Shown here in pieces: positions 30,644-47,416 of a stretch of 64,000 bases of DNA. A program made the position numbers and the translations under genes. The notes beneath the pieces are model-generated. The model ran no database searches and was not told where the DNA came from. It worked only from the letters and a program-made list of their open reading frames with translations. The stretch is from assembly GCA_020632555.1 (NCBI GenBank), contig JACKFI010000003.1, positions 4,351 through 68,350 on the forward strand, read 5' to 3'. Numbering within the stretch: the first letter of the stretch is position 1; each line of letters opens with the position of its first letter. This stretch comes from Candidatus Omnitrophota bacterium (lineage in GTDB: Bacteria; Omnitrophota; Gorgyraeia; Zapsychrales; JANLHA01).

Positions 30644-32092
30644 ATGAGCATTTTAAAACAACGTGTGAGTCGAGCGGTCCTAAGCAATAAGTATTTACGG
30701 CAGGAAATTTTTATTGCTTTTTGTCTGATTATGCTGACCTTGTTGGTTTTTATTGGTTATCTTTTCCCCGGTGTTTCCGCCAATTCTTGGTTTGCTAATC
30801 GCGCGACATTGCCACTGGTGATCGGTATTATTATCATGATTCTAACGATTGGATTTTTGATTATTTGGCAAATTGTGGAGCCGATTATTCGTTTGAATCG
30901 CGAAGCAAAAATGATTGCTTCGGGAGATTTAACGCGTGAAATCTGTTTGACGCGTGAAGATGAGTTGGGAGAATTAGGATCATCTGTGAATGCTTTGACT
31001 CGTCGGATTCGTGAGAATGTTGAAGAATTGAATAATCTCAATAAAAAAACAGAAGTGCTCAACGATGAGATTAATAATCGCATTGTGATGTTATCGAATT
31101 TGATGGAAATCAGCAATGGCATTGCGCAGAAAGCGGCTTTGAAGGATATTTTACGGATTGCGGTTGAAAAATGTTTTCCGGAACAAGAAATGTCTTTTGG
31201 CTGTGTTATTTTAAAGGACGAACAGACCAATGAGTACCGAATTCAATACCTGCATAGTGCGCATGAAGAGCAGCTGAATCGTCGCGGGTTAAATGCTATG
31301 AAAATTGCTTTGGGGATTGGTGTTTTAGGCAAAGCGATTCTTAAACAAGAGGCCGTTGTGATTGATCAGGCAACCAAGATGACCAGAGAAATTGAAGATT
31401 TTAAGGGAATGTTTTTGGTGAATAATGCGATTATTTCGCCAATTTCGTCGACGGATAACGCGCATGGTTTGATTATCGCGGCTAATGAGCGGCCAGATTA
31501 TTATTGCACCGAGACACAGAAGGATTTGTTGCAGCTGGTTTCCAAACATATCGCGATTGCAGTTTTAAATGAAAAACTTTCAAAAGAGGTTGAAAAATTT
31601 GAGATGACCGATTCTTTGACAGGTTTGTATAACAATGCTTATGCGAGGAGTCGTTTAGGGTTTGAAGTTAAGCAGGCCGTTTATACACAAAAAACATGTT
31701 CATTTGTTTTAATGAAGATTGATCGTTTCAAGGATTATTTAACAGCATTCGGTCATATCGGTGTTGAAGACGCGCTTTTAAAGATTGCTGCTGTTTTTAA
31801 AGAGTGTTTATCTTCTGACGCCAAGGCCGCGCGATTTGCCGAGCATGAGTTTGCTTTGGTTTTGCCGTCGGTTAATAAGCGGGATGCGATTGCGCTAACT
31901 GAGGATATTGTAAAAAAGATTGCTGAAAGATTTGCTCAGGAAGAAAATCCTGCGCGTCATTTGACTGTGACAGCGGCTGTTGTTGAAAATCCTTTGGATG
32001 GTCGCACAGCTGATGATTTAATTTTAAGAAGCGGCATTATTTTAGCCGACACCATCGAACAGGGTGGGAATCGAGTGGGGTATCAAAAATAA
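30644..32092 (+). CDS. Membrane HAMP-GAF-GGDEF protein with a degenerate GGDEF active site
   Basis: The ATG at 30644 follows GGAAAGGTGAG. Two TM segments. HAMP block 'IVEPIIRLNREAKMIASGDLT...ELGELGSSVNALT', a GAF-sized middle region, and a GGDEF-domain start 'DSLTGLYNNAY'. The signature reads 'RFAEHEF' instead of RxGGDEF. Confidence 0.8.
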   Translation: MSILKQRVSRAVLSNKYLRQEIFIAFCLIMLTLLVFIGYLFPGVSANSWFANRATLPLVIGIIIMILTIGFLIIWQIVEPIIRLNREAKMIASGDLTREICLTREDELGELGSSVNALTRRIRENVEELNNLNKKTEVLNDEINNRIVMLSNLMEISNGIAQKAALKDILRIAVEKCFPEQEMSFGCVILKDEQTNEYRIQYLHSAHEEQLNRRGLNAMKIALGIGVLGKAILKQEAVVIDQATKMTREIEDFKGMFLVNNAIISPISSTDNAHGLIIAANERPDYYCTETQKDLLQLVSKHIAIAVLNEKLSKEVEKFEMTDSLTGLYNNAYARSRLGFEVKQAVYTQKTCSFVLMKIDRFKDYLTAFGHIGVEDALLKIAAVFKECLSSDAKAARFAEHEFALVLPSVNKRDAIALTEDIVKKIAERFAQEENPARHLTVTAAVVENPLDGRTADDLILRSGIILADTIEQGGNRVGYQK

Positions 32093-32178
32093 GGGGTTGG
32101 GAGTATATTCAAGCAGGCAGAGGTTTTTTGTGAGGATTATTTATTGTGTTGAGCGTTAAGGAACAGGAATAATTTTTT

Positions 32179-32631
32179 ATGCAAAATCCCAGACGTACGT
32201 CCACAAAACAACTCGGACAGGTTTTAATTGAACGTGGGGTTATCGATCACGAACAAGTGTTGATGGCCATTACTTATCAGCGTGAAAAAGGTGGACTTTT
32301 TGGAGAAGTTCTTGTCCAATTGAAGTTTGCCACCGAAGAAGATATCGCTCAGGCTTTGACGTGCCAGTATGGGTTTCCGTATTTGCCTTTGGCGAATTAT
32401 GAAATTGATCAAGAGGTGATCAGTACAATTCCAGAGAATGTGTGTTTGCAATTTTGTCTTATTCCAGTCGATAAGATTGGAAAAAGTTTAACGTTGGCAA
32501 TGGCCGATCCGTTAAACCAGAACGCCATTGATGATGTTGAGTTGATTACCGGAGCGACCGTTCAAGCCTTCGTGAGTACTTCCAGTGATATTAAGGAAGC
32601 CATCGCACGCTATTATAAACCTGCAAGTTGA
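32179..32631 (+). CDS. Stand-alone MshEN / GspE-N-terminal (T2SSE_N) domain protein
   Basis: 'QLGQVLIERGVIDHEQVLMAITYQ' + REKGG + 'LFGEVLVQLKFATEEDIAQALTCQ' fits the tandem 24-residue MshEN pattern (R)LGxxLLxxGLLxxxxLxxxLxxQ. There is no ATPase domain. Confidence 0.7.
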   Translation: MQNPRRTSTKQLGQVLIERGVIDHEQVLMAITYQREKGGLFGEVLVQLKFATEEDIAQALTCQYGFPYLPLANYEIDQEVISTIPENVCLQFCLIPVDKIGKSLTLAMADPLNQNAIDDVELITGATVQAFVSTSSDIKEAIARYYKPAS

Positions 32632-32635
32632 TCTT

Positions 32636-34357
32636 ATGTCGTCTCTTAAAGAACGCTTGGTCGAAATTCTTATTTATGACAAGATTCTCAAACAAGAGGA
32701 TCTTGATCTTGCTTTAGCCGAACAGAAAAAAAGCGGCGGTGAACTGAGTAAGATTTTAGTTCGTCTTAAATTTATAAATGAGGACGATTTGACCCATGCG
32801 TTAAGTACCGGCTTGGGTATGCCTCCGATTGATATTTCCCGCCTTAAAATTGATCCGGCTGTAGTTAAGATTATTCCGCAGGACGTTGCCGCTAAATATC
32901 AAATTATTGCCATTTCCAGAATGGGCGATAATTTGACATTGGCTATGGCTGATCCGCTGAATATCTTTGCTATCGATAATGTGAAAGCTTTAACCGGAAT
33001 GAATATTGTTCCTATTATAGCGCGGGCGGCTTTGGTTCAGCAGACGATTGAAAAGTATTATACGACGGATTCCGGCGAGGCTTTGCAAAAAATCATTCAA
33101 GATATGAAGGACGCCGATGATATTGAATTGATTCGGGACAATGAGACTAAGGGCGGGGCCGACGATTTAACCGAAGATGCTCCGATGATCAAGTTGACGG
33201 ACACGATTATTCATCAAGGAGTATTGTCCAAAGCTAGTGACGTTTTTATTGAACCCATGGAAAAGACGATGCGCATTCGCTATCGCGTTGATGGGATTAT
33301 TCGCGAGGTGGATCGAATGGCCAAGGCTTTGTTGGCGCCGATTGTTTCGCGGATTAAAGTCATCAGTTCTTTGGACATTTCAGAACAGCGTCTGCCGCAA
33401 GATGGCCGATTTAAGACGATTATGACGGGAAATCGTGAAGTGGATTTTCGTGTGAGTATTTTGCCGACGGCTTATGGGGAAAAAGTTGTTTTGCGTATTT
33501 TAGATAAAACTGCCGGTATTTTGGATTTAAGCAAATTAGGTTTGGAACCAGATTCGATGAAGAAGTTGCAGGATTGCGGTTTGCGTCCCCATGGGATGAT
33601 TTTATGTTGCGGGCCGACGGGCAGCGGGAAAACAACGACATTGTATTCGCTTTTGAAATTTGTTGATTCGGCTGAAAAGAATATTATTACTGTCGAAGAT
33701 CCTGTCGAGTATCAGATCAAGGGGATGAATCAGGTCAATGTTCGTCCGTCTGTCGGATTGACTTTTGCCGCGAGTTTGCGTTCAATTTTGCGTCAGGACC
33801 CTGATATCATCATGGTCGGGGAAATTCGCGATTCAGAAACTTTGGATATTTCGGTGAAGGCGGCTTTGACGGGGCATTTGGTCTTAAGTTCATTGCACAC
33901 GACCACAGCGGCCGGTTCCATTGTTCGTATGATGAATATGGGCATTGAACCGTTTTTATTATGTTCGTCGGTGATCGCGATTGTTGGGCAACGTTTGATT
34001 CGACGAATTTGTCAAAAATGCAAAGAACCTTTTCCTGTTACTGCCGAGATGGCGCTTAAACTGAATTTGAATAAAAAGAATTCCAGTCAGGAAGTTGTGT
34101 TATTTCGCGGTAAGGGATGCAATGCGTGCTCGAACACGGGTTATGGCGGTCGACTTGTGATTTGTGAAATTATGGTTTTAACGCCCAAGGTGAAGGAAAA
34201 GATTTTAGAGCGCGTGGGTGAATTAAAGATTAAAGAAACTGCTCGTCGTGAAGGAATGATTACGATGCGCGAAGATGGGTTGATTAAGGCGTTTGCGGGT
34301 TTGACCACTTTAGAGGAAGTTTTGCGTGTGACAGCTCCCGATGAGGATTTGAAGTAA
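32636..34357 (+). CDS. pilB: Type IV pilus / T2SS assembly ATPase, paralog 1
   Basis: The ATG at 32636 follows the upstream stop. N-terminal GspE_N repeats, Walker A 'GPTGSGKTTT', 'IMVGEIRD', 'LVLSSLHT', tetracysteine 'CQKC...CNAC'. Confidence 0.9.
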   Translation: MSSLKERLVEILIYDKILKQEDLDLALAEQKKSGGELSKILVRLKFINEDDLTHALSTGLGMPPIDISRLKIDPAVVKIIPQDVAAKYQIIAISRMGDNLTLAMADPLNIFAIDNVKALTGMNIVPIIARAALVQQTIEKYYTTDSGEALQKIIQDMKDADDIELIRDNETKGGADDLTEDAPMIKLTDTIIHQGVLSKASDVFIEPMEKTMRIRYRVDGIIREVDRMAKALLAPIVSRIKVISSLDISEQRLPQDGRFKTIMTGNREVDFRVSILPTAYGEKVVLRILDKTAGILDLSKLGLEPDSMKKLQDCGLRPHGMILCCGPTGSGKTTTLYSLLKFVDSAEKNIITVEDPVEYQIKGMNQVNVRPSVGLTFAASLRSILRQDPDIIMVGEIRDSETLDISVKAALTGHLVLSSLHTTTAAGSIVRMMNMGIEPFLLCSSVIAIVGQRLIRRICQKCKEPFPVTAEMALKLNLNKKNSSQEVVLFRGKGCNACSNTGYGGRLVICEIMVLTPKVKEKILERVGELKIKETARREGMITMREDGLIKAFAGLTTLEEVLRVTAPDEDLK

Positions 34358-34417
34358 GGTGTAGCATTTGTTGCAAAGTATTTTTGAAAATTATAACGAC
34401 TTGGGATTAGGCAGGAT

Positions 34418-36127
34418 ATGGCAGAAACTTTAAAAACCAAGATTCTTGCGCGTCTGCTGGACTCTTTGAAGTTAAAAAAAGAGGATTTGGATGCCGCTTT
34501 GAAATTGCAAAAAGAAAAAGGGATTCCGCTTGAGCGGGTTTTGATGGAGCAGGGGCTGATTAATGAGCAGGATTTATTATTGCTCTTGGTCAAGGAATTG
34601 CATATTCCTTTTATTAACTTGAAGAAGTATAAGATTGATCTGGAATTGAAAACAGTGATAACGGAAAAAGTTGCTCGTCAGTACCATATCGTTCCGCTTT
34701 CGCAAATGGAAGACACTTTGACCATTGCTCTTTCGGATCCGTTGAATATTTTTGCTTTAGATGACATCAAAAACATTACAGGCAAGAATATTGACGTGGT
34801 GATGAGTACCAATTCAGAGATTTTGCACGCAATAGATCATTATTATGGATCCAAGGCGACCGCTTCAGTTTCAGATATTAGTAAAAGTATTGAGTTTGAA
34901 CAGTTTGAAATTGTTTCTGAAAAAGAAGGGGCTCAGCAGGATGATGTGGATGCGCAAGAGGGTGAACAAGCGCCGATTATTCGTTTGGTGAATTTGATTA
35001 TACAAGAATCGCTCAAACAACGCGCATCGGATATTCATATTGAACCGATGGCTGATCTGGTGCGAGTTCGTTATCGCGTCGATGGTGTTTTGTTGGAGGC
35101 GATGAATTTTCCCAAGAGCAATCAGAATTCTGTTTTGGTTCGCTTAAAGATTATGGCGCGGCTGGATATTACCGCGACGCGCACACCGCAAGACGGCCGG
35201 TTTAAAATGAATATTGGAGCCAAGGAAGTGGATTTTCGTGTTTCGGTTTTGCCGACGATTTTTGGGCAAAAGGTTGTTATGCGTATTTTAGACCGAAAGA
35301 ATTTATCCATTGGTTTGAATGGTTTAGGTTTTTCTGAGCATTCGATTAAGATTTTGCAAGAGGGAATTCATAGTCCGTTTGGCATGATTCTGGTGACCGG
35401 CCCGACCGGTAGCGGGAAGTCAACGACGCTGTATTCCATTATTAATGAGCTGAATAGTGTTGAAAGAAATATTATCACCGTTGAAGATCCTGTGGAATAT
35501 TTGATTGAGGGATTGACTCAAATTCATGTGCGTTCTGATATTGGTTTGACTTTTGCGTCTGGCTTGCGCGCTATTTTACGGCAAAGCCCGGATATTGTTA
35601 TGGTCGGTGAGATTCGTGACGTTGAGACAGCGGATATTTCGATTAAAGCGGCTTTGACCGGCCAGATGGTTTTTTCGACCTTGCATACCAATGACGCGGC
35701 GGGGGCTTTGACACGTTTGGTCGATATGGGGGTTGAGCCATTTTTGGTGGCTTCCAGTATTGTTTTGGTTTGCGCTCAGCGTTTGTGCCGAAGAATTTGT
35801 ACGCATTGCAAACATCAGGTGGAGGCGCCTTCCTGGATTGCCAAAGGCATGCAAGAAAAGATCCCGCCGGGGACAATCTTTTACGAGGGCAAAGGGTGTG
35901 ATTATTGCCGTATGACGGGTTATCGCGGACGGATAGGTATTACCGAAGTATTTCAAGTTGACGATATGGTTCGCGAGATGTTAATTCTGGGTAAATCGTC
36001 TGACGAAATTAAAGAATATGCTCATAAAACCAAAGGGATGAGACTTTTGTGGGATGAAATTATGGATAAATTTATCAGTGGTGAAACGACAGTGCAGGAA
36101 GTTTTACGTTTAACAATGGATGAATAG
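34418..36127 (+). CDS. pilB: Type IV pilus / T2SS assembly ATPase, paralog 2
   Basis: Same architecture as paralog 1: 'GPTGSGKSTT', 'VMVGEIRD', 'MVFSTLHT', 'CTHC...CDYC'. Confidence 0.9.
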   Translation: MAETLKTKILARLLDSLKLKKEDLDAALKLQKEKGIPLERVLMEQGLINEQDLLLLLVKELHIPFINLKKYKIDLELKTVITEKVARQYHIVPLSQMEDTLTIALSDPLNIFALDDIKNITGKNIDVVMSTNSEILHAIDHYYGSKATASVSDISKSIEFEQFEIVSEKEGAQQDDVDAQEGEQAPIIRLVNLIIQESLKQRASDIHIEPMADLVRVRYRVDGVLLEAMNFPKSNQNSVLVRLKIMARLDITATRTPQDGRFKMNIGAKEVDFRVSVLPTIFGQKVVMRILDRKNLSIGLNGLGFSEHSIKILQEGIHSPFGMILVTGPTGSGKSTTLYSIINELNSVERNIITVEDPVEYLIEGLTQIHVRSDIGLTFASGLRAILRQSPDIVMVGEIRDVETADISIKAALTGQMVFSTLHTNDAAGALTRLVDMGVEPFLVASSIVLVCAQRLCRRICTHCKHQVEAPSWIAKGMQEKIPPGTIFYEGKGCDYCRMTGYRGRIGITEVFQVDDMVREMLILGKSSDEIKEYAHKTKGMRLLWDEIMDKFISGETTVQEVLRLTMDE

Positions 36128-36228
36128 GATCGGCATCCGGATGGAACATCTCTTTTTTAGAAAAGATTTTTTGATGATAGAAAATATGTTAGAATGTCCT
36201 GTGTTTTTTAGGAAAAGAAAGGAACTCT

Positions 36229-37437
36229 TTGATGCCAACGTTTAAATATGTATCGAAAGACTGGGATTCAAAAAGCGTTGTCGGAAAAATTGTTGCCGAT
36301 GATGAGGGCAAGGTCATTGAGGAATTGCGCAAACGCAATTTGACCATTATTTCGATTGATTTGGTTAAAGAGTCAGCGGCTCGTAAGGCAGCTTTTGGCG
36401 GAGCGAAAGTTAAAGAAGATGATTTGGTTATTTTTAGCCGGCAACTTTCCACTATGATTGATTCTGGAATTCCAATTTTACAGGCTTTGGATGCTTTGCA
36501 AGAACAAATCACGCATCCTGGTTTTAAAGGTGTGGTTGTTGCTGTGCGGGATGATATTCAAATGGGGGGCAGTCTTTCGGCATCCTTTGCCAAGCATCCG
36601 CGCGCTTTTGACACCTTGTTTGTTAACATGGTCAAAGTGGGGGAAACCGGCGGTGTTTTGAGCCAGATTCTGGATCGAATTGCCGGTTATTTGGAAAAAT
36701 CTTTGCGGCTTAAACGTAAAGTTCAGTCAGCGATGATTTATCCGGCCGTTGTTGTGACCATGGCCGCTTTGATTACTATTCTGCTTTTGGTTAAAGTTGT
36801 CCCGACGTTTGCGGGAATTTACACTTCATTTAATAAAGAATTACCGGGTATGACACAAGCTTTGATTAATGTGAGTAATTTGTTGCAGCATAATCTGCTG
36901 GGCTTGATTGCGGGCGTTGTGATTTTTGGGTTTTTGCTGAATCGAGCTTATCGGACAGATATGGGGCGGCTTTATATCGACAGTTTTGTTTTGAAAATGC
37001 CCATTTTTGGCGATATTATCCGCAAAGTTGCTATCGCGCGTTTTAGCCGCACCTTATCGATTCTTTTGCAAACGGGTGTTCCCATTCTTGAATCATTTGA
37101 TATTGTTGGAAAATCCAGCGGGAATCGTGTGATTGAAGGCGTTATTGAAACAGTTAAAGCCAATGTTGCTGAAGGAGAAAGCATTGCCGCTCCGCTGCTT
37201 AAAAGTGGTGTTTTTCCGCCGATGGTCACGCGCATGATTTCTATTGGCGAGAAATCCGGCCAACTTGAAAAAATGCTGACTAAGATTGCTGATTTTTATG
37301 ATGATCAGGTTGATACGGCTGTTAATGGGCTGACCAGCATTATTGAGCCTTTGATTATTGGGGTTTTGGGTATTGTGGTTGGATTCATTGTTATCGCTCT
37401 GTTTATGCCGATTATTAGCATTACGACAATTATTTAA
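36229..37437 (+). CDS. pilC: Type IV pilus platform protein PilC/GspF
   Basis: Two GspF repeats ('FSRQLSTMIDSGIPILQAL', 'FSRTLSILLQTGVPILESF') and 3 TM segments. Confidence 0.9.
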   Translation: MMPTFKYVSKDWDSKSVVGKIVADDEGKVIEELRKRNLTIISIDLVKESAARKAAFGGAKVKEDDLVIFSRQLSTMIDSGIPILQALDALQEQITHPGFKGVVVAVRDDIQMGGSLSASFAKHPRAFDTLFVNMVKVGETGGVLSQILDRIAGYLEKSLRLKRKVQSAMIYPAVVVTMAALITILLLVKVVPTFAGIYTSFNKELPGMTQALINVSNLLQHNLLGLIAGVVIFGFLLNRAYRTDMGRLYIDSFVLKMPIFGDIIRKVAIARFSRTLSILLQTGVPILESFDIVGKSSGNRVIEGVIETVKANVAEGESIAAPLLKSGVFPPMVTRMISIGEKSGQLEKMLTKIADFYDDQVDTAVNGLTSIIEPLIIGVLGIVVGFIVIALFMPIISITTII

Positions 37438-37492
37438 TCGAAAGTTACTTAAATGATGAAACATTGAGCGCAACCTGCTTGTGTTTTAGAGA

Positions 37493-39121
37493 ATGGCAAG
37501 GATTATTATGAATCAAAAACGTACGAAAAAAATTTGTTTTTCTTTTTGCTGGGCTGTTGTGTCGATGGGTCTGATTTTGAGTTTGTTCTCTGTTGCGGCT
37601 GCCAGTGAATCACAACAGTCTGTTGATGGTGATGAATTATTGGCAGCATCTTTGAGTGATTTGCGTGCGACAATGGAGAAAGCACGGCAGAGCAATGCTT
37701 CTTATAGTCAGCAAAATCGTTTGTTGCGTCAGCAGATTGATCAAATTCAAGAAGCGATAAATTATTTCGAAACACAAAAAGTTGTTGCTGGGCAAGATGG
37801 TGTTGAAAGTGTTGCTGGCCCTGATCTTGAAGGGGCATTGGCGGATCAGGAGAAAGCGTTGTATGAGGCGCGAGTTGAAAATTTTATGCTCAGACGAGAG
37901 CGTTTTAAAAACGAAGGTTTGCGTTTACAAAAGAAAATTCAATCTTACGATGAAGAGAATCAAATCGCGCAGCAGAATATGGCTCAGTTGGCAAAAGAAA
38001 TTGCCCAAATGGAATCTGGATTAAAAGATCAATCACCGAGCGCAAAGACTCAGGAACAGATTTCGGCTGATGTTTCCGGTGATATTTCTGATTATATAAC
38101 TCGCCGCGGTATTCTTGAGAAAAATCTGGCTTTGCAAAGAGAGATTTTGCAAAATAATGATCAGCAAAAGGCTGTTTTGGAAAAGCAACAAGCTTCACTT
38201 TTGGCAGAAATATCATCAAATCAAGAACAGTTAACTCTTTTGCAGGGAGAGAAAAAGCTGATCATTGGTGAAGTTGAGGCCGCTGGGTCGGATTTGAATC
38301 AGGGGCAGAATAATGACCGCCAAGCTGTTGTGCAGTTGCAGGATTACCGTAATCAATTGAACGCTTCTATAGCAAATTTAAAGAAAACGGCTCGAATGGT
38401 CAGCGAGAAAGATAATAGAAATCTAGAGTACGTTTTAAAAAATCTTAAACAGCAGCAGGTTTTTTTAAAACAAAAGTTGAGCATTTTGGAGAGTCGTGCA
38501 ATTCGGCCGGTTCAATCAGCGAAAGCTGCTAATGCCTTGGTAATCTCACGAAAGCGTTTATTAGAGATTCAAAAAGATTTGCAAACAAAAATTAAACATG
38601 CTCAAAAAGAATATGCCGCAGACAAGCAGTCGATCACTCAAGGCGGGGGTGTGAATGTTGTTGAATTGAATGATAAAATTGACAAAAGTTCCAAGCAGGT
38701 GCGTCATTTGCAACAACAGATTAATGAATTGCAAAGGACACCTTCGGCGGACAGTAAAAGCCAAGAGTTGGCAGCGCAAGTTGAGACTTTAGAAAAGAAT
38801 TTGCAGCTATTGCGTCGGCAGTCTAAAGACATTGCTGCCGCTGATGATGTGGTGACAATAAGCCAAGATGATGGTGCTCTTGAAGAAGAAATCAAGAGTT
38901 TGACTGCTCGACGGGATATTTTGAGCGAGTCGATTAGCGCGATTGATAATAAATATCAGAGGAGCAATCTTTTTCCGAAAGGATTCGGCGCGACAGAAGA
39001 GCAGTTGAAGGAATATCGGTCGACTTTGTCGTCGACTAATGCCGCTTTGCAAGAAAAACTTTTAGTCCTGCAAATGCGGCAAGATAAGCTGGAATCTGCC
39101 GGTGTAACTGGTTTGCAGTAA
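37493..39121 (+). CDS. Exported 542-aa Q/E/K-rich coiled-coil protein embedded in the pilus locus
   Basis: N-terminal signal/anchor KICFSFCWAVVSMGLILSLFSVAAASE. The rest has a heptad-like, low-complexity helical composition. No catalytic motif is present. Confidence 0.55.
   Translation: MARIIMNQKRTKKICFSFCWAVVSMGLILSLFSVAAASESQQSVDGDELLAASLSDLRATMEKARQSNASYSQQNRLLRQQIDQIQEAINYFETQKVVAGQDGVESVAGPDLEGALADQEKALYEARVENFMLRRERFKNEGLRLQKKIQSYDEENQIAQQNMAQLAKEIAQMESGLKDQSPSAKTQEQISADVSGDISDYITRRGILEKNLALQREILQNNDQQKAVLEKQQASLLAEISSNQEQLTLLQGEKKLIIGEVEAAGSDLNQGQNNDRQAVVQLQDYRNQLNASIANLKKTARMVSEKDNRNLEYVLKNLKQQQVFLKQKLSILESRAIRPVQSAKAANALVISRKRLLEIQKDLQTKIKHAQKEYAADKQSITQGGGVNVVELNDKIDKSSKQVRHLQQQINELQRTPSADSKSQELAAQVETLEKNLQLLRRQSKDIAAADDVVTISQDDGALEEEIKSLTARRDILSESISAIDNKYQRSNLFPKGFGATEEQLKEYRSTLSSTNAALQEKLLVLQMRQDKLESAGVTGLQ
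39024..39088. repeat. Direct repeat copy 1 (the 3' end of the coiled-coil gene)
   Basis: ctttgtcgtcgactaatgccgctttgcaagaaaaacttttagtcctgcaaatgcggcaagataag recurs at 40237-40301 with 2 substitutions. Confidence 0.9.
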
Positions 39122-39161
39122 ATTTCTGCAGGTGTCTTTTAGTAGTTAGCAATACGGGAGG

Positions 39162-40193
39162 ATGTTTGCTATGGGTGTGTATCTTAAGAATCTGCATATT
39201 AAAGCTTCTTCAAGCCGGTTGGTTGAAGAAATTCTCCAAGAAAATGTTAAGGACAATTATCGGGTTCTCCCTGCCAAGGGAGGATGGATTACTGTATGTC
39301 TTAACGTAGATAAGGTTGAAGAGAAAGAGTTTGTTGAAATTAACAAGATATTATCGAAAAAACTTGGGGTCGCAATTTGGGGCTTTGATATTTATGACAG
39401 CGATATTTTGGTATTTCATTTATTTGATGGAGGAAATTTAATTGCAAAGTTTAATTCGAATCCTGATTATTTTGGCGTTGCGACTAGAATAAAGCGTAAA
39501 TACTTTTCTTGTAGTGCTGATCAAATAAAAAGATATTGCCAGCGAGGTACTTTAACAAAGCAACTACAAAGAATTCTTAAACAAAAAACTATTCGGGATT
39601 TTGCGGATGAGACTGAAATTGATATTAATAATTATGTTTTTGAAGAACAAAGACTCGAGGAGTTGCTGAGCTTGATTGGGATCGATCGCAAGTGGGCTTA
39701 TACAGATTATAGGGATCGAGATGATAGGAAGAACGCAGAGAATAGTTGTGTCGACATGGATTCTTTTACGGAGCGAGCGAATCAAGAAAATAAAACCGAT
39801 AAGGGTAAATTTGCTTATGCTGTTTCATGGGGTGAAATTACAAAGGTTAAGAAATATCTTTCGCGGGGCTTGAATCCTAATTTTAAGGATATTCTTGGAC
39901 TAACACCGCTGATGATTGCAGCTGAAAATTCTCGAATTGAGACCATGAAAGTTTTGATCGAGAATGGTGCCAATGTTAATACTGTCGATGATAGTGGAAA
40001 TACGGCTTTGCATCTTGCCATTGAATGCGAAGATGAAGATGTTATTAGGTTATTGCTTGAGGTGGGTGCTGATGTTTATAAAAAAAATCGTGCTGGTGCA
40101 ACACCCGACAGTATGATTAGGAGCTCAGAATCTTTGGATGTTTTATTTTCTGATTTATTAAAGAGTTTAAAGAAAAAATCCAGAAAACGTTAG
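39162..40193 (+). CDS. Ankyrin-repeat protein with an uncharacterised N-terminal domain
   Basis: C-terminal ANK units 'GLTPLMIAAENSRIETMKVLIENGANVN', 'SGNTALHLAIECEDEDVIRLLLEVGADV', 'AGATPD'. The N-terminal roughly 220 aa carry no recognised motif and no signal peptide. Confidence 0.8.
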   Translation: MFAMGVYLKNLHIKASSSRLVEEILQENVKDNYRVLPAKGGWITVCLNVDKVEEKEFVEINKILSKKLGVAIWGFDIYDSDILVFHLFDGGNLIAKFNSNPDYFGVATRIKRKYFSCSADQIKRYCQRGTLTKQLQRILKQKTIRDFADETEIDINNYVFEEQRLEELLSLIGIDRKWAYTDYRDRDDRKNAENSCVDMDSFTERANQENKTDKGKFAYAVSWGEITKVKKYLSRGLNPNFKDILGLTPLMIAAENSRIETMKVLIENGANVNTVDDSGNTALHLAIECEDEDVIRLLLEVGADVYKKNRAGATPDSMIRSSESLDVLFSDLLKSLKKKSRKR

Positions 40194-40236
40194 CTATTGA
40201 TAAAAAGGATAGATTCTTATAAATAAATATTTTCTT

Positions 40237-40301
40237 CTTTGTCGTCGGCTAATGCAGCTTTGCAAGAAAAACTTTTAGTCCTGCAAATGCGGCAAGATAA
40301 A
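40237..40301. repeat. Direct repeat copy 2 (non-coding remnant of the coiled-coil gene 3' end)
   Basis: 63 of 65 nt are identical to 39024-39088. It keeps the same reading frame and runs to a TGA that lies inside the TTGACA -35 box at 40328. Confidence 0.9.
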
Positions 40302-40327
40302 GCGCCGGTCACTCAGGCCATGTCCCC

Positions 40328-40356
40328 TTGACATTGTCATAAACAGGTTTTATACT
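40328..40356 (+). promoter_or_regulatory. Sigma70-type promoter driving the riboswitch-pilA leader
   Basis: TTGACA (40328-40333), 17-nt spacer, TATACT (40351-40356). Confidence 0.65.
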
Positions 40357-40382
40357 TTCAGTGCAGCAAAGTTAAAAGATGA

Positions 40383-40470
40383 AAAAGGCAAACCACTCGC
40401 AAGGGTGGGACGCAAAGCTAAAGGGTCCCGTCGCCGGAAGGTGAAGTTTGAGGGACAGCCAGTTACCATC
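40383..40470 (+). promoter_or_regulatory. c-di-GMP-I (GEMM-I) riboswitch aptamer
   Basis: 'GGCAAACCACUCGCAAGGGUGGGACGCAAAGCU' aligns almost base for base with the V. cholerae Vc2 aptamer segment 'GGCAAACCAUUCGAAAGAGUGGGACGCAAAGCC' (recalled from the literature). The first hairpin has a GNRA (GCAA) tetraloop. A second hairpin GUCCC...GGGAC carries an internal GGAA loop, and the 3' 'AGUUACC' matches Vc2 'GGUUACC'. Confidence 0.8.
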
Positions 40471-40490
40471 AAAAGGTCAAAAGCTTATGT

Positions 40491-40525
40491 ATCCCATTCT
40501 TGGTTGGTCAGGAATGGGATTTTTT
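40491..40525 (+). terminator. Intrinsic terminator (riboswitch expression platform)
   Basis: atcccattc (40491-40499) pairs with gaatgggat (40512-40520), followed by TTTTT at 40521-40525. Confidence 0.75.
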
Positions 40526-40776
40526 ATTGAGATATATAAAGACAAATAATCGCAAGAATGGCGAATAAAAAAATTGCAAGTAAGATTGACAGCGAAAGGA
40601 GGTATGTTACGATTAGTACCATAAGTTAACTTAACGATAAAGGAACATCGAACAAGCGCTCTGCACGGGAAATAAATTTTGTAAACCGTTATCATTCATT
40701 ATCTTCTACGGTTTATTTTCTGGGTAAAGGGCTTGAAAAAGACGGTGCCGACCTTTATCCAGAAAGGAGGAAGAAA

Positions 40777-41175
40777 ATGAAAATGAAATTAAATCGCAAG
40801 GGGTTCACACTCGTTGAAATTATGATCGTTGTCGCGATCATTGCCCTCTTAGCAGCCATCGCAATTCCGAACTTGTTAAAAGCCAAGATTTCAGCGAACG
40901 ATGCCTTAGCAAAAAGCACGTTGCGTTCGCTCTCAACAGCTTCTGAGACGTTTGCAACGGCTAACACCGGTAACTATCCGACTGATATTACGTCGTTGAC
41001 AGGAGCCACCCCGCCGTACATTCAGGTGCCATATTGTGATCAACAAAACTCTGGTTTCAGCTTTACCTGTACCATGGGAACAGGGTCTTACACGTATGTG
41101 GCCACGCCTGTAACGGTTGGGACTTCAGGGACAACGACATGGACGATTGCTACGGGTGGTGTTTTAACTCCGTAA
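40777..41175 (+). CDS. pilA: Major type IV pilin
   Basis: AGGAGG RBS. Class III signal 'MKMKLNRKG/FTLVEIMIVVAIIALLAAIAIPN' (prepilin cleavage/methylation motif). Small T/G-rich C-terminal domain with one Cys pair. Confidence 0.9.
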   Translation: MKMKLNRKGFTLVEIMIVVAIIALLAAIAIPNLLKAKISANDALAKSTLRSLSTASETFATANTGNYPTDITSLTGATPPYIQVPYCDQQNSGFSFTCTMGTGSYTYVATPVTVGTSGTTTWTIATGGVLTP

Positions 41176-41214
41176 CTCGTTTAGTTGTTTGACGTGTTTG
41201 TCTTAACAGGAAAT

Positions 41215-41243
41215 GGGGGGCCAATCAAATGGCCCCCTTTTTT
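41215..41243 (+). terminator. Intrinsic terminator/attenuator after pilA
   Basis: gggggcc (41216-41222) pairs with ggccccc (41231-41237), followed by TTTTTT at 41238-41243. Confidence 0.75.
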
Positions 41244-41269
41244 CTGAAAAATGGAAAGAGTGTGATGGG

Positions 41270-41746
41270 ATGAAGCGACAAATTAAAAAATTTTTTGGAA
41301 CATCATTGTCGACCAGCGGGTTTACTCTAGCGGAATTGATTGTTGCCGCTGGAATTATGGGTGTTGTGGTCGGCGGAATTTTGGTTAGCTATGTTCGCTG
41401 TATGGAGCTTAATGAGGCCTCTCAGAATAAGTCTTTGGCCGTTAAGGCGGCACGTGACCGAATGGAAACCATAAAGAGTACGGCTTATGCCAATTTGGTT
41501 TCTACCTATAATAACGTACCTTTTACGGTAACTGGTTTTACAGGACAAGGCATCAGTTATGTCACAGTTTTGAATGCAAAGAATACGGAAGTTGTTGTTT
41601 CTGTCAGTTGGCGCCAGAAGAATGGACGGGTTTATGGTGAAGATAAAAACTTGAATGGCGTTATTGATAACGGGGAGGATGTCAATAGTGACGGACGGCT
41701 TAATTCGCCAGTGGATATCGTAACCCGAATTTTTAAGAGGAGTTGA
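41270..41746 (+). CDS. Minor (pseudo)pilin with prepilin-type N-terminus
   Basis: The ATG at 41270 lies downstream of the terminator; the track start at 41213 lies inside it. 'SGFTLAELIVAAGIMGVVVGG'. Confidence 0.75.
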   Translation: MKRQIKKFFGTSLSTSGFTLAELIVAAGIMGVVVGGILVSYVRCMELNEASQNKSLAVKAARDRMETIKSTAYANLVSTYNNVPFTVTGFTGQGISYVTVLNAKNTEVVVSVSWRQKNGRVYGEDKNLNGVIDNGEDVNSDGRLNSPVDIVTRIFKRS

Positions 41747-42384
41747 TGGGGATGAACTTGAATTGCAAAAAAGGCTTTAGTTTGATGGAGCTGATGGTGA
41801 CAGTTGCCATTATTTCTTTGATGGCGGCTGGGGGATTTGCAGCTTTGTCAGCCGGGGAGGCGTCGTGGTTTACGGCAGAAGCCAGTATACAGGTTCAAGA
41901 AAATTTACGTAAAGCTTTGGACCATGTCACGGCGGAATTGAGAGAAAGTCATTTGTCGCAAGTGGCTATTGCGCAGGGGACGGGTTTTAATGCGACAGAC
42001 ATGGTGACATTTAGTATTCCGGTGATTTGTCACACTGGCGATAATTTATTGAATGCTAACGGGGATGTGGCGCATTGGGGAGCGACGCTGCGCTGGGGAT
42101 GTCGTGACGCGGCGTGTATGGATTTAAATAACACGTGCTCATCGGTTGAATATAAATTTATCCGTTATGAAGTTATTACGGGTAATCAATTGGTTCGTAA
42201 AGTTTTGGATAATGCCAGCACGGTGATGCGTCAGGATGTTATCGCGCATAATATTACGGATTTTCAAGCGAGAATTGTTTCAGGTTCTTTAATTGAGTTG
42301 ACTTTGCAAGCTCGGGTGACATCCGTTTTGAATCGTCCGGTACAAGCGACGGTTCAAAATAATATTACTTTGAGAAATCAATAA
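41743..42384 (+). CDS. Minor pilin (PilW/PilV-like) with prepilin-type N-terminus
   Basis: 'KKGFSLMELMVTVAIISLMAAGG'. The true start is possibly the ATG at 41752. Confidence 0.75.
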   Translation: MMGMNLNCKKGFSLMELMVTVAIISLMAAGGFAALSAGEASWFTAEASIQVQENLRKALDHVTAELRESHLSQVAIAQGTGFNATDMVTFSIPVICHTGDNLLNANGDVAHWGATLRWGCRDAACMDLNNTCSSVEYKFIRYEVITGNQLVRKVLDNASTVMRQDVIAHNITDFQARIVSGSLIELTLQARVTSVLNRPVQATVQNNITLRNQ

Positions 42385-42391
42385 AAAGGCG

Positions 42392-44122
42392 GTGGCCGCG
42401 ATGAAAACAAAAACTTTAAAACACTGTTCTGATGAAAAAGGTATGGCGCTGGTGATTGTTTTGATGGTGGTGATGGTTTTTGCTATTTTGGGCAGTGTGT
42501 TTGTTGCGCGCACGGTTAATGAAAAGAATACCGCCGAGCGAGAGAAATTATTGAACCAAGCTTATTATGTCGCCGAGGCTGGCGCTGATGCGGGGTTAGC
42601 CAAGTTGGACTCACTGATTAACACAGATCTTTTAACAACAGTCAATACCACCAATCCTAATATTTTGGGTAATAAGGCTGAGTTATATGCGACTAATCAG
42701 GATGGTTTGGGTTTCTTGGTTATGTATGTTAAGCAGAATGGAACGGCCCAATTGGTTTTAAATGGGACTCAGGCTCAGTATTCATCGTCTAATATAACAT
42801 TGGGTTCAGGAACGTATCGTTATGATATCGTATTGCAACAAAAGTCGAATCCGGTTTTTATTGCCACTGATATTTGGGATTTTCCCTATTATTACCAAGT
42901 TCAAACGACGGCGACGGTGCAGAATGTTTCCCGGAAAATTCGCTTGGACGGAGATTTGACGGTGCGTGTTCAGCGGGATAATTTTGCAAAATTCGCTTTG
43001 TTTACCGATCATCACAGTCTACCGAGTTCAGCGACGGTGTGGTTTACCAGCCAGACCAATTTCGCGGGGCCGTTGCATACCAATGAACGGTATAGTTTTG
43101 CTTTTAATCCCAGCGGAACTTTTGATGGAGCAGTGACTCAGCAGCATAATTCAGCACGGTTTTATAATAATGGATTTAATTTCTTGGCTGATGCGGATGC
43201 CAATGGGACCACAGATCTTCCGATATTTAATGCTGGTTATACGCGTGGCGTTAGTCAAATTGTTCTTTCTTCATCTGTTCAGCAGGCGGATTTAGCTAAT
43301 CAGGCTAAGGGCGGACAAAATATTAATAGCAATGGGATTTATGTTCCTTACTCGGGTAGTAATCTTGTTGGGGGGATTTTTGTGAAAGGCAATCCCAATA
43401 TTACCCTGGGTGTGGATGGTTCCAATAATGCGAAATATACTGTGCAATTGGGAGCAACGACCAAGGTTATTACAGTTAATCGAGGGGCTAATACAACCAG
43501 TGTGGTGACTAATGGGGGGGCGCCGGTTGTTTATACAGGAATTCCTGATGGCGTTGATGATTTGGGGACGATTATTTATGTGGATGGAACCGTTAATAAT
43601 TTAAATGGAATTGTTCAAAGGGATACGGAGCTGACAGTGTCTAGCCAGTATGATATTAATATTTCCGGCAATATCAAGTATCAAAATTACACGCCGGGTG
43701 TTGGGACGCCGGGTACGGTCGGTTATATTCCACCCAATGCGACTGGAGAAACAAATTTGCTAGGTTTGGTCGCTTGGGGTGGAGATGTGAATATTACAAC
43801 CACTGCGCCGAATAATATTGAATTGCATGGGATTGTGATGGCGCGCAATGGTATTTTTCAGGTTGAAAACTATACAAATACAGGCACTGGTCCTCGAGGG
43901 GCAGCGACGCTTTTAGGGGGCGTGATCACACAGTTTTATGGAGCTTTTGGTTTGTATTCTAGCTCAACGGGAGGTTTGATTGCCGGGTATGGCCGCAATT
44001 TTGTCTATGATTCTCGAACTTTGATGGGCAAGACGCCGCCTTATTTTCCCAGCATGAAAACATTTATCGCGTTTACCAATGATTTAACGGATAAAGTTTC
44101 TTATCAAGAGGGCGGGTTTTAA
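42392..44122 (+). CDS. Large PilX-N-domain protein (candidate pilus tip/adhesin component)
   Basis: 'EKGMALVIVLMVVMVFAILGSVFVART' resembles the PilX N-terminal hydrophobic segment, which has no cleavable G/F site. A roughly 520-aa G/T/N-rich, beta-type C-terminal region follows. Confidence 0.6.
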   Translation: MAAMKTKTLKHCSDEKGMALVIVLMVVMVFAILGSVFVARTVNEKNTAEREKLLNQAYYVAEAGADAGLAKLDSLINTDLLTTVNTTNPNILGNKAELYATNQDGLGFLVMYVKQNGTAQLVLNGTQAQYSSSNITLGSGTYRYDIVLQQKSNPVFIATDIWDFPYYYQVQTTATVQNVSRKIRLDGDLTVRVQRDNFAKFALFTDHHSLPSSATVWFTSQTNFAGPLHTNERYSFAFNPSGTFDGAVTQQHNSARFYNNGFNFLADADANGTTDLPIFNAGYTRGVSQIVLSSSVQQADLANQAKGGQNINSNGIYVPYSGSNLVGGIFVKGNPNITLGVDGSNNAKYTVQLGATTKVITVNRGANTTSVVTNGGAPVVYTGIPDGVDDLGTIIYVDGTVNNLNGIVQRDTELTVSSQYDINISGNIKYQNYTPGVGTPGTVGYIPPNATGETNLLGLVAWGGDVNITTTAPNNIELHGIVMARNGIFQVENYTNTGTGPRGAATLLGGVITQFYGAFGLYSSSTGGLIAGYGRNFVYDSRTLMGKTPPYFPSMKTFIAFTNDLTDKVSYQEGGF

Positions 44123-44265
44123 GTTTTTTGAGAGTTCTCTTGTAAGAATGATTGGATGCATGGGGGTATTTTGATACCGTGTTTCTTATTGTTTTAAGAG
44201 CACGGTATTTGCGCTTCTTATTTTTTAGTTACTATCATGGCCTGCTAAATGAGCATTTTGCTTTT

Positions 44266-44583
44266 ATGAATAATTCAATGGTATGGTTTTGGGGAGGGCT
44301 TATTGGTGTTCTTTTAATTGTGAGTTTTGTTTTTAATAAATGGATTAATAAAGAACTTGTCGAAACCGTTAAGCCCGCGAGTGTGCAACAGCCTGTGGAT
44401 CAAAAACTCAAGCATGATCAACCCGCGGTTGTTGTCCAAGAATATGATATGTTTTCAGATTATCCATCATATCCGTCGGAAAAGAAGCCAGAAGATGCTC
44501 CGGTGATAGAAAAGCATGAACGTGTTTTGGATAAAAAAATAATTTATGAAATGCCCACAAGCAATATATTTCTGATACAATGA
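44266..44583 (+). CDS. Small single-pass membrane protein (hypothetical)
   Basis: The internal ATG at 44266 gives MNNSMVWFWGGLIGVLLIVSFVF... followed by a P/E/K-rich tail. Supported only by ORF and context evidence. Confidence 0.4.
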   Translation: MNNSMVWFWGGLIGVLLIVSFVFNKWINKELVETVKPASVQQPVDQKLKHDQPAVVVQEYDMFSDYPSYPSEKKPEDAPVIEKHERVLDKKIIYEMPTSNIFLIQ

Positions 44584-44665
44584 CGCGTGTTGTTGGTTAT
44601 TATATTTTGTGTAAGTTGTTTTTTGGGTTATGGACGTAATATTAAAAAACATTTGTTAGATATTT

Positions 44666-45736
44666 TTGATTATGGCGCAATCCTCTGATCCTTTTTCTTC
44701 TTTGATAAAAAAATTTAATCCCGCCAAGGTTGTCCGTTCATCTGTTGGTCTTGATATTGGTGTTGGTTCTTGCCGCATGGTAGAAGTTGTCAATCGTGCT
44801 GATGGGTTTGAGCTTGTTCGTTGGGCGATTGAGCCGATTGTTGCCGGAGATGTTGTTAAATCCATCCGTACGGTTATGTCGAAAGTGAGCCAGCCAAATC
44901 TTTCGCCTGTGACAGCTTTAACTGGAAAAGGAACATTGATTCGTTTTGTGGATATGCCCAAGATGTCTTTGGCGGACCTGAAACGTTCTTTTTCTTTTGA
45001 AGTTGATAAATATTTCCCTTTTCCCAAAGACCAAATCTTCACGGATTGCTATATTCTTGACCCGCAAGGCATTGATAATAAATTGCCTGTCTTGGTCGCT
45101 GCCGCAAAAAAAGAGCTTGTTCATGAACGAATCAAATTGATGACCAGCGCCGGTTTGCAGGCTGATTTTATAACCTTGGGTTCAATTTCTATTGCTAATG
45201 TTTTTAATGTTTTGGGAAGTCCTCCGATATCTAAAGACAGTTCTGGGCAAGGCAAGAGGGCGATTGCGGTTTTGGATATTGGCGAGTTGGTGAGTAATCT
45301 TACGATTTTGGTTGATAATCGTCCCCGCTTTAATCGGGATGTTTTCCTCGGCGGGAGGGATTTTACCAAAAGTATTAGTAATGCTTTGCGCGTGACGGTT
45401 GAAGAAGCAGAGAAAATTAAGCAGGAACCTAAAGAACGCGCGCAAGACGTCGCGGTAAGCATTGAGTCCGTGGCTTTTGATTTGGTTTCAGAGTTGCGAT
45501 TGTCTTTTGATTATTTTATGACGGAAGCGAATATTCCTATTAGTCAGCTTTTTTTAACTGGCGGCACGACGGCTATGGAGCATTTGCGGCAAAGTCTTTC
45601 CAAACAACTTGAAGTTGATGCTGTGTGTTGGAACCCGATCCGTCTTTTAAAATTAAATGCGGAAGTTGTTGAGGCAGATATCAATGCCAAGGCGGGTTAT
45701 TTGGGTTCAGCTTTGGGTTTGGCATTATATTGTTGA
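44666..45736 (+). CDS. pilM: Type IV pilus assembly protein PilM (actin-like)
   Basis: 'VGLDIGVGSCRMVEV', 'VLDIGELVSNLTIL', 'LFLTGGTTAMEHL' (ASKHA phosphate motifs). Followed by pilNOPQ. Confidence 0.85.
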   Translation: MIMAQSSDPFSSLIKKFNPAKVVRSSVGLDIGVGSCRMVEVVNRADGFELVRWAIEPIVAGDVVKSIRTVMSKVSQPNLSPVTALTGKGTLIRFVDMPKMSLADLKRSFSFEVDKYFPFPKDQIFTDCYILDPQGIDNKLPVLVAAAKKELVHERIKLMTSAGLQADFITLGSISIANVFNVLGSPPISKDSSGQGKRAIAVLDIGELVSNLTILVDNRPRFNRDVFLGGRDFTKSISNALRVTVEEAEKIKQEPKERAQDVAVSIESVAFDLVSELRLSFDYFMTEANIPISQLFLTGGTTAMEHLRQSLSKQLEVDAVCWNPIRLLKLNAEVVEADINAKAGYLGSALGLALYC

Positions 45737-45746
45737 GAGGTTTGAA

Positions 45747-46355
45747 ATGATTGATATCAATTTAGTTCCGGAAAATATGCGCAAGAATCGCCGTTCTAAA
45801 GCGGTTGCGGCTACTTCTCCTTCTTCGGCGGTTGTGACGGGTTTGCCTCAGACTGTGGTTTTTGGAATTCTGGGGGCTTTTACAGCATTATTGATTCTCG
45901 TATTATTGGGTTGTCAGGGTTATTTGGCTTTGCAAATTTCCAAGCGTAATAATTTGAAAAAGCAATTGGCAGATATTGAACAGGCGCGCAAGAATGTTGA
46001 AGTGACCATTAAGGAAATTAAGGATTTGAATGTGCGGGTTAAGACTTTGGAAAAGGTTGTTGGCGGGCGGACAATTCTTTGGGCGGAAAAATTAAATGAA
46101 ATCAGTGATAATTTACCCAGAGGTGTTTGGTTGACCAAGGTGGCGCTGGAAGCCCAATTTTTGGTGCTTGAAGGCAGCGCGGTTTCTAAAATGAAAACAG
46201 AGATCGCGGATATTCATCTGTTGACGGGTAAGCTCAAGTCGGACAAAAACTTTATGGTGAACTTGAAGAGTCTTGAGCTGGATATGATTAAGGCTCGCAA
46301 TGTTGATAATCTTTCAGTGGCTGATTTTAAAATCAAGGCTGAACTAGAGAAGTAA
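45747..46355 (+). CDS. pilN: PilN
   Basis: The ATG at 45747 gives 'MIDINLVPEN', a typical PilN start. One TM segment plus a coiled coil. The track start at 45657 would overlap pilM. Confidence 0.8.
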   Translation: MIDINLVPENMRKNRRSKAVAATSPSSAVVTGLPQTVVFGILGAFTALLILVLLGCQGYLALQISKRNNLKKQLADIEQARKNVEVTIKEIKDLNVRVKTLEKVVGGRTILWAEKLNEISDNLPRGVWLTKVALEAQFLVLEGSAVSKMKTEIADIHLLTGKLKSDKNFMVNLKSLELDMIKARNVDNLSVADFKIKAELEK

Positions 46356-46375
46356 TTTGGAATTATCAGAATATT

Positions 46376-47415: not shown

Positions 47416-47416
47416 C

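Follow-up and report, generated by a model that had tools for sequence, protein, structure and literature searches.

A c-di-GMP-I riboswitch and a detached MshEN domain at a conserved type IV pilus locus of the Omnitrophota

Background

How a second messenger might control type IV pili in the Omnitrophota is the question raised by a pilus locus in a 64,000-nucleotide (nt) stretch of a Candidatus Omnitrophota genome (GenBank assembly GCA_020632555.1, contig JACKFI010000003.1, positions 4,351 to 68,350 of the forward strand), here termed the window, in whose coordinates all positions are given. The Omnitrophota are uncultured, ultra-small bacteria with a presumed dependence on other cells, and type IV pili are believed to hold a central place in their lifestyle. 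An earlier note on this DNA pointed to four elements linked to cyclic diguanylate (c-di-GMP) within 10.5 kilobases (kb), namely a sensor protein with a degenerate GGDEF domain, a stand-alone MshEN domain, two assembly ATPases with MshEN-like N-termini and a c-di-GMP-I riboswitch, and proposed that pilin supply and motor activity are both gated by this one messenger. All four were recovered with Pfam, Rfam and inspection of the sequence (Table 1), and all are encoded on the + strand. The proposal itself stands in part, in that the riboswitch is real and conserved, while the ligand motifs of both ATPases are degenerate. A slight preference is given here to the reading that c-di-GMP is sensed by the RNA and by the detached MshEN protein acting in trans, and not by the motors.

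The locus offers a concrete, testable picture of second-messenger control of the pili of this phylum and a natural case of an MshEN receptor split from its motor, which could reveal how the domain relays its signal. The layout recurs across the phylum and is built of known parts; every part has a precedent, as the note had said of the individual element types, and the value lies in their combination and its conservation across the phylum rather than in a new principle. For comparison, 80 related loci of 20 kb each, cited by number where needed (L004, L005 and so on), were retrieved from species-representative genomes with an alignment of the stand-alone MshEN protein. All 80 appear to derive from Omnitrophota, although many of the records are labelled otherwise, for example 'uncultured Planctomycetales' and, in one case, 'Lysobacterales'. 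Domain scans of the window were made with Pfam on the main + strand open reading frames (ORFs) of at least 110 amino acids (aa), together with two minus-strand ORFs.

A canonical class I aptamer upstream of the major pilin gene

The sole Rfam match above its gathering score in the 64 kb is an aptamer of the c-di-GMP-I clan, which lies 306 nt 5' of the prepilin gene and scores 61.2 bits (E 5.4e-12) against its best model, RF03167, for which the threshold is 59. This model describes the c-di-GMP-I-GGC variant, which, by the Rfam model consensus, carries a G for the A at the intercalating position (A47G). Assignment to the variant was rejected: the model consensus GACGCGAAGC is opposed by GACGCAAAGC in the window, where the match line is blank, and every related aptamer hit reads GACGCAAAGC or GACACAAAGC at this point. 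The GGC label reflects the competition of two nearly equal models. The score of the window aptamer against RF01051 is hidden through clan competition, and the orthologous aptamers in L012, L013 and L016 are assigned to the canonical family, RF01051, with scores of 58-59 bits (threshold 35). In the numbering of Vc2, the ligand contacts G20, A47 and C92 fall at 40387, 40414 and 40466; across covariance-model hits the equivalent positions hold G (36/36), A (33/33) and C (35/36), respectively. By these residues the contacts are the standard c-di-GMP triad and the aptamer is a canonical member of class I. A variant specific for cyclic AMP-GMP (c-AMP-GMP) is disfavoured because position 20 is G rather than A.

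The distribution of the aptamer was traced with a covariance model built from eight aptamers, which replaced a strict DNA pattern that matched three loci only, and which gave 36 hits in 33 sources. Among the 45 loci that reach at least 8 kb downstream, 26 contain the aptamer, always on the coding strand and 5.8-8.8 kb after the MshEN gene, and the next gene, 150-460 nt further on, codes for a prepilin of 130-175 aa in nearly all loci. The two internal hairpins, P1a and P1b, are supported by covariation, with 94.8% of the cells paired and compensatory changes in ten of the 18 pairs; the observed value was found in 0/500 shuffles, and slid controls were 34-52% paired. The P1a tetraloops of the aptamers comprise GCAA, GUAA, GUGA, GGAA and GAAA. 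The riboswitch call of the earlier note, when put to a covariance-model test, is thus upheld both by its score and by conservation with compensatory changes 5' of the major pilin. Seven pilin-bearing loci that gave no covariance-model hit were also scanned with Rfam; as no match was found in these either, the riboswitch is truly absent in one clade.

Two further RNA features were observed in the related loci. A second c-di-GMP-I aptamer is present in L063 (16526-16621), 33 nt 5' of an 841-aa ORF without a clear Pfam domain, and no terminator was found after this aptamer. In L004, a match to group II intron domain 1-4 (RF02001, 38.1 bits; 17145-17198) is located approximately 130 nt past the riboswitch, at the contig end and at the place where the pilin gene is expected.

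Expression platform and promoters

The aptamer is followed by an intrinsic terminator whose 5' arm is complementary to the loop and 3' strand of P1a. The duplex that these two segments can form (40399-40411 with 40491-40503) has a predicted energy of -15.8 kcal/mol, a value reached by 0/200 shuffles. With folding stopped at nt 40503, the antiterminator fold has the lowest energy (-38.0 kcal/mol, as against -29.5 kcal/mol for the aptamer fold, a preference of 8.5 kcal/mol), while the full-length RNA favours the aptamer together with the terminator (-45.7 to -48.8 kcal/mol). Binding of a nanomolar ligand, which by our own estimate is presumably worth about 12 kcal/mol, would overturn this preference. 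As modelled, the arrangement of folds is that of the usual kinetically controlled OFF switch, and an OFF polarity, with termination on c-di-GMP binding, is a supported prediction because the terminator 5' arm can pair with the aptamer strand instead; the earlier note is silent on polarity. A terminator occurs 6-66 nt after the aptamer in 30 of 33 relatives, and in its 5' arm CCUAUUCUU or GUCCCGUUCU, which is complementary to AAGGAUGGG(AC) in P1a, is usually found; an antiterminator duplex of -9 kcal/mol or better is predicted for 17 of the 31 loci.

Two promoter-like sites belong to this region. P1 lies 5' of the aptamer, and a comparable site, in most cases TTGACA-17/18-TATACT, is present in 25 of 27 related loci. 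P2 lies between the riboswitch terminator and the pilin gene and has an equivalent 135-222 nt 5' of the pilin ATG in 24 of the 27 riboswitch-bearing loci, with its hexamers kept and its spacer variable. In comparison with the close relative L005, the sequence following the terminator has diverged and contains a 36-nt indel, and it is well conserved from P2 on. The loci without a riboswitch mostly have a TTGACA-type promoter-like site 240-330 nt 5' of the pilin gene and a long leader. The P1-aptamer-terminator cassette thus appears to be placed 5' of an otherwise self-sufficient pilin promoter. The description of the element in the earlier note as a riboswitch in the pilA leader is correct as to its position upstream of the pilin gene and needs qualification in that its own terminator and a second promoter-like site intervene.

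From this layout the following sequence of events may be envisaged. In the absence of the ligand, the P1a loop and 3' strand would pair with the terminator 5' arm and RNA polymerase would continue into the pilin gene, while with c-di-GMP bound the aptamer would retain its P1a strand, the terminator would form and transcripts from P1 would end. P2 would supply pilin mRNA that bypasses the riboswitch. As the predicted P2 lies 3' of the terminator, c-di-GMP would modulate only the P1-derived part of the pilin mRNA, trimming pilin supply and not fully gating it. Gating of the pilin at the RNA level, as first proposed, is thereby retained in a leakier form.

The leader contains several other features. 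A candidate sigma-54 site (TGGCGA...TTGCA near 40558) in the spacer was dismissed on visual inspection, the spacing from GG to GC being 14 nt and not 10. No significant structure was predicted for the leader downstream of P2 (40620-40790; z -1.76). A motif, YGKYATYATWM (CCGTTATCATTC in the window, 40683-40717), is conserved in approximately 24 of 37 loci at 44-107 nt 5' of the pilin ATG, with or without the riboswitch, and in the window it lies in the loop of a nine-pair hairpin; it may serve a third promoter as its extended -10 element, or be a regulator site. The P2 spacer contains a Shine-Dalgarno-like GAAAGGAGG (40596-40604), which is identical to the real ribosome-binding site of the pilin gene at 40762-40770 and is found in the P2 spacers of 12 of 24 loci. 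In riboswitch-less leaders a GGAGG ... CCUCC ... GGAG arrangement is present, the sequence of which suggests a translational control element.

The MshEN motif in a detached protein and in the PilB ATPases

The c-di-GMP site of MshEN domains is formed by two 24-residue motifs, (R/K/L)LGxxhhxxGhhxxxxLxxxLxxQ, which are placed five residues apart in an N-terminal four-helix bundle (PMC5013675; PMC11731258). The substitutions G11L and G40I abolish c-di-GMP binding in Vibrio cholerae MshE (PMC5013675), and the GSPII-A domain of PilF, in which the second motif is degenerate, does not bind the ligand (PMC11731258). The MshEN calls of the earlier note stand up to a hidden Markov model test, PF05157 being matched by the stand-alone protein and by both ATPases. 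The Pfam model, however, matches the C-terminal subdomain (residues 62-162) and not the binding helices, so that a hit is silent on the ligand site.

The stand-alone protein, MshEN-1, contains the motifs QLGQVLIERGVIDHEQVLMAITYQ and LFGEVLVQLKFATEEDIAQALTCQ, separated by REKGG, with the five-residue spacing exact. Both motifs retain Gly3 and Gln24, and the corresponding residues G13, G42, Q34 and Q63 do not vary among 30 orthologues. A Leu at the first position, as is found in motif II of MshEN-1, is tolerated in PilF GSPII-B, which binds at 6 nM (PMC11731258). The protein also has the MshEN fold: an AlphaFold2 model with a predicted local distance difference test (pLDDT) score of 87.6 matches 5HTL (E 3.5e-11) and the PilF domains GSPII-A and GSPII-B, at template modelling (TM) scores of 0.65-0.85. 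MshEN-1 has 2830 homologues, the nearest 120 of which are 69-100% identical, about 150 aa long and derived from metagenomes, and an identical protein has been annotated from a metagenome-assembled genome of a 'Candidatus Omnitrophica bacterium'. At least 453 stretches of a one-genome-per-species collection were matched. Stand-alone MshEN proteins are not rare, since, among the 150 best representative clusters, about one in three is a single-domain protein of 145-210 aa, and others contain two to seven repeats; no characterised example was found in the literature searched.

The register of the motifs in the two ATPases was fixed with HMMER alignments to Geobacter PilB and PilF. PilB1 reads RLVEIL...AEQ and ELSKIL...STG, in which Gly3 is replaced by Val and Ser, respectively, and Gln24 of motif II by Gly, while PilB2 reads KILARL...KLQ and PLERVL...VKE, in which Gly3 is replaced by Leu and Glu and Gln24 of motif II by Glu. 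Gly3 is non-glycine at almost all PilB1 and PilB2 motif positions in the 80 loci, and a few PilB1 orthologues keep the Gly of motif II. The ATPases would therefore not appear to be c-di-GMP receptors themselves, and gating through their N-domains, as put forward in the earlier note, loses its basis, as the motif glycines are missing and the equivalent substitutions abolish binding in V. cholerae MshE (PMC5013675). Because PilB1 and PilB2 lack these glycines, motor gating, if any, must run through another protein. The apparent retention of the ligand site in the detached domain and its loss from the motors point to action in trans, and MshEN-1 is probably such a receptor, as far as its motifs allow a plausible assignment. 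Encoded directly 5' of the PilB motors, it would act on these or on the platform in trans.

An alternative arrangement, in which MshEN-1 and PilB1 are fused by frameshifting, was rejected, as the genes are in different frames and the gap between them ranges from approximately 0 to 200 nt among the loci. A second stand-alone MshEN gene coding for about 150 aa is located between pilB2 and pilC in many related Omnitrophota operons (L014, 14181-14642; L035, 14046-14498; L063, 14115-14579; and some 30 other loci), with motifs near the consensus, for example LLGEILVKRNIITPKQLDTALEVQ, KKEEG and YIGEILVRLGFLEERDIVVALVVQ. The window lacks this second gene, with the end of pilB2 at 36127 and the start of pilC at 36229.

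The degenerate GGDEF protein and the supply of c-di-GMP

The HAMP-GAF-GGDEF protein begins with two transmembrane helices joined by a loop of about 15 residues, which are followed by the HAMP, GAF and GGDEF domains. Its active site is AEHEF, Lys takes the place of the first metal-binding Asp (KIDRFKDYLT) and LT that of the ND of the substrate site, the sequence LYNNAY also being present; in the locus-linked orthologues AEHEF, GDHEF, SDSEF or similar is found, and GG[DE]EF in none. The RxxD of the I-site is missing, the window having SSDA at this place and the orthologues an xxxD that lacks the Arg. On these residues the protein is taken to be unable to make c-di-GMP and to have no I-site, and a role as sensor or scaffold at the membrane is the most likely one. 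Its inclusion among the c-di-GMP elements in the earlier note is conjecture, as it is without a recognisable c-di-GMP binding site. The gene is present in about 40% of the related loci, always between rodA and the stand-alone MshEN gene.

In line with the earlier note, which saw no active cyclase or phosphodiesterase in the window, the Pfam scans revealed no further GGDEF, EAL, HD-GYP or PilZ domain there. Related operons are different in this respect. L061 codes for a REC-GGDEF protein with GGEEF and RxxD (13919-14815) in the pilus operon, and both L061 and L079 contain, likewise in the pilus operon, proteins of 1377-1383 aa with the unusual architecture GGDEF(AGDEF, RxxD)-STAND/AAA_16-HEAT. 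These cyclase-like genes occupy the gap between pilB2 and pilC (L061, 13919-18963; L079, 13899-18032), and L082 has the same gap. A regular-expression search of the related loci for HD-GYP gave false positives only. As related pilus operons hold intact-looking cyclase genes, c-di-GMP signalling is plausible across the phylum; to judge from these sequences, the messenger is plausibly made in the phylum and signals at this locus.

Possible modes of c-di-GMP control

Sensing by the RNA and by MshEN-1 in trans, the reading slightly preferred here, must be set against the possibility that the N-domains of the ATPases bind c-di-GMP themselves and gate the motors directly, which would give four stacked layers. 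Both ATPases match Pfam MshEN at the E-values given in Table 1, and MshE-type ATPases and several PilB proteins bind c-di-GMP via this domain (PMC5013675, PMC6957770). Direct binding is nonetheless very unlikely, given the missing Gly3 in both motifs of both proteins and in nearly all 80 loci, the loss of the final Gln of motif II in both and a Pfam match that misses the binding helices. More weight is due to the possibility, doubtful on balance, that MshEN-1 is itself a non-binder, serving as a structural adaptor or as a decoy for the partners of the PilB N-domain, so that the riboswitch is the only link to the messenger. MshEN-1 departs from the consensus, its closest structure is the non-binding PilF GSPII-A, and its most strictly conserved stretch, LKFATEEDIAQALTCQYGFPYLPL, runs past the binding motif and suggests a protein interface; the second stand-alone MshEN of many relatives, which has a better motif, may be the real receptor. 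Against this, both Gly and both Gln of MshEN-1 are invariant in its orthologues while the ATPases have lost theirs, a pattern that is hard to explain without selection for a ligand site. Several observations nevertheless tell against the preferred reading. MshEN-1 is off consensus at position 1 of motif I (Q/H) and at position 2 of motif II (F), has Lys for Gly at position 10 of motif II and shows Val/Ile for Leu changes, and it is the match to GSPII-A that stands at the top of its structural matches (TM 0.85). Approximately 40% of the related loci have a pilin in the same place without a riboswitch, and the RNA layer is therefore dispensable. In no more than 10 of the 31 loci is the complementarity of the antiterminator greater than in 95% of shuffles matched for composition, P1 and P2 are identified by consensus match alone, and the genome's own cyclases were not seen in the 64-kb window to which the search was confined.

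The role of the RNA may also be read in other ways. The P1-aptamer-terminator unit could mainly yield a free-standing small RNA (sRNA), as a c-di-GMP buffer or a trans-acting RNA, while P2 would drive the pilin irrespective of c-di-GMP. A strong promoter and a strong terminator belong to the unit itself, P2 is conserved downstream, and the stretch between terminator and P2 is poorly conserved, with an indel relative to L005, as would be expected at the boundary of two units; Bdellovibrio merRNA and the V. cholerae P1-Vc2 sRNA provide precedents (PMC3627812, bioRxiv 10.1101/617340). The unit is, however, always directly 5' of the major pilin on the same strand, and its terminator arm keeps a complementarity to the aptamer that is needed for switching and not for a constitutively terminated RNA, which makes this explanation unlikely. 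Even less probable is an ON switch as at Clostridioides difficile pilA1, in which c-di-GMP would promote read-through and more pilin. High c-di-GMP favours pili in C. difficile and the MSHA pili of V. cholerae (PMC6200980, PMC7096442), and folding kinetics are beyond secondary-structure prediction; the terminator of the window, however, competes with an aptamer helix and not with an anti-antiterminator, and class I c-di-GMP riboswitches of C. difficile are mainly OFF (PMC6200980; bioRxiv 10.1101/617340). Extended to the phylum, the reading preferred for the window leads to the tentative suggestion that in Omnitrophota motor sensing has moved to trans-acting MshEN proteins (one here, two in many relatives), combined with a class I riboswitch that lowers pilin read-through at high c-di-GMP. 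If true, the messenger would turn piliation down, contrary to what is known as the paradigm from MshE and from C. difficile.

Comparison with known systems

A c-di-GMP riboswitch 5' of a major type IV pilin gene, acting through a transcription terminator, is known from C. difficile pilA1 (Cdi-2-4; PMC6200980). That riboswitch belongs to class II, is an ON switch and occurs in a Gram-positive bacterium, whereas the aptamer described here is of class I, is predicted to be OFF, is followed by a second promoter past the terminator and serves an Omnitrophota pilus with a PilQ secretin. In V. cholerae, Vc2-tfoY likewise combines a class I OFF aptamer, as is predicted here, with upstream promoters that yield riboswitch RNAs and downstream ones that bypass it (bioRxiv 10.1101/617340), and tfoY is the closest precedent for the predicted P1/P2 layout. 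Vc2, however, is without a terminator-type platform and controls a regulator gene, in contrast to the terminator/antiterminator pair before a pilin gene in the window. Bdellovibrio merRNA is a c-di-GMP-I aptamer that forms its own short RNA, also in a small bacterium dependent on other cells (PMC3627812), but it has no conserved downstream gene, while the Omnitrophota unit is consistently linked to the pilin.

With the MshE and PilF-type ATPases MshEN-1 shares its fold (TM 0.72-0.85 to 5HTL, 9G1W and 6EJF) and a layout of two motifs with a five-residue spacer. There the receptor forms part of the motor protein, while here the motors have degenerate domains and a separate protein of 150 aa bears the motifs. 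A non-binding PilB N-domain that is a docking site for separate signal proteins is found in the FimX-PilZ-PilB system of Xanthomonas citri (PMC8389850), and 7LKO is among the structural matches of the MshEN-1 model. FimX is a degenerate EAL receptor that operates with a PilZ adaptor, unlike the detached MshEN that is the candidate receptor of the window, where the scans found neither PilZ nor EAL.

Genomic context of the locus

The order of the genes at the locus is mreB-mreC-mreD-pbp2-rodA (25302-30550), the HAMP-GAF-GGDEF gene, the stand-alone MshEN gene, pilB1, pilB2 and pilC, followed by the genes for a coiled-coil protein and an ankyrin-repeat protein, the intergenic riboswitch, the major pilin, the minor pilins and PilM/N/O/PilQ (Table 1). 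The core of a type IVa pilus cluster, comprising PilB, PilC, PilM, PilN, PilO, the PilQ secretin and prepilins, is present by Pfam in the window. Neither a PilT retraction ATPase nor a PilD prepilin peptidase was found in the 64 kb, and none lies beside the pilus cluster.

Table 1. Positions of the predicted genes and RNA and promoter features of the pilus locus in the window
Feature	Position	Strand	Basis and remarks
Membrane HAMP-GAF-GGDEF protein	30644..32092	+	Pfam GGDEF 5.5e-23, HAMP, GAF_2
Stand-alone MshEN (MshEN-1), 150 aa	32179..32631	+	PF05157 1.3e-21, lone domain
PilB1 assembly ATPase	32636..34357	+	PF05157 5.3e-19 and T2SSE; Walker A, Walker B and tetracysteine motif intact
PilB2 assembly ATPase	34418..36127	+	PF05157 5.6e-22 and T2SSE
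PilC platform protein	36229..37437	+	Two T2SSF domains (Pfam)
542-aa coiled-coil protein, role not assigned	37493..39121	+	Fast-evolving, 34-36% identity in close relatives
Ankyrin-repeat protein	39162..40193	+	In this window only, among the loci compared
Putative promoter P1 (TTGACA, 17 nt, TATACT)	40328..40356	+	Near-consensus match, 5' of aptamer
c-di-GMP-I aptamer	40378..40471	+	Rfam clan CL00126, best model RF03167; GNRA loop GCAA
Predicted antiterminator strand (P1a loop and 3' strand of aptamer), GCAAGGGUGGGAC	40399..40411	+	Pairs with terminator 5' arm
Intrinsic terminator of riboswitch unit	40491..40528	+	13-pair stem (40491-40520), then TTTTTATT
Putative promoter P2 (TTGACA, 16 nt, TACGAT with TG)	40586..40613	+	Consensus match, between riboswitch terminator and pilin gene
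Major pilin, prepilin with N-methylation motif	40777..41175	+	Pfam N_methyl
Minor pilins, PilX-like protein, PilM, PilN, PilO, small ORF, PilQ secretin	41213..48841	+	Pfam
Terminator 3' of pilin gene	41215..41238	+	Sequence

The window has a G+C content of approximately 42% and its + strand carries almost every gene; over its whole length (1-64000) the GC skew is positive, strong and uniform (0.09-0.31). Outside the pilus cluster, a secretin-like ORF of 334 aa (4106-5110; Secretin_N and partial Secretin) lies far from the PilQ gene (47417-48841), with a DsbA-like protein, TPR proteins and an Rce1-like protease encoded in its neighbourhood. A 1047-aa protein encoded at 58792-61935 joins an AMP-binding (acyl-adenylate) enzyme to an ABC1 atypical kinase domain, and its gene is followed by a fatty-acyl reductase-like one.

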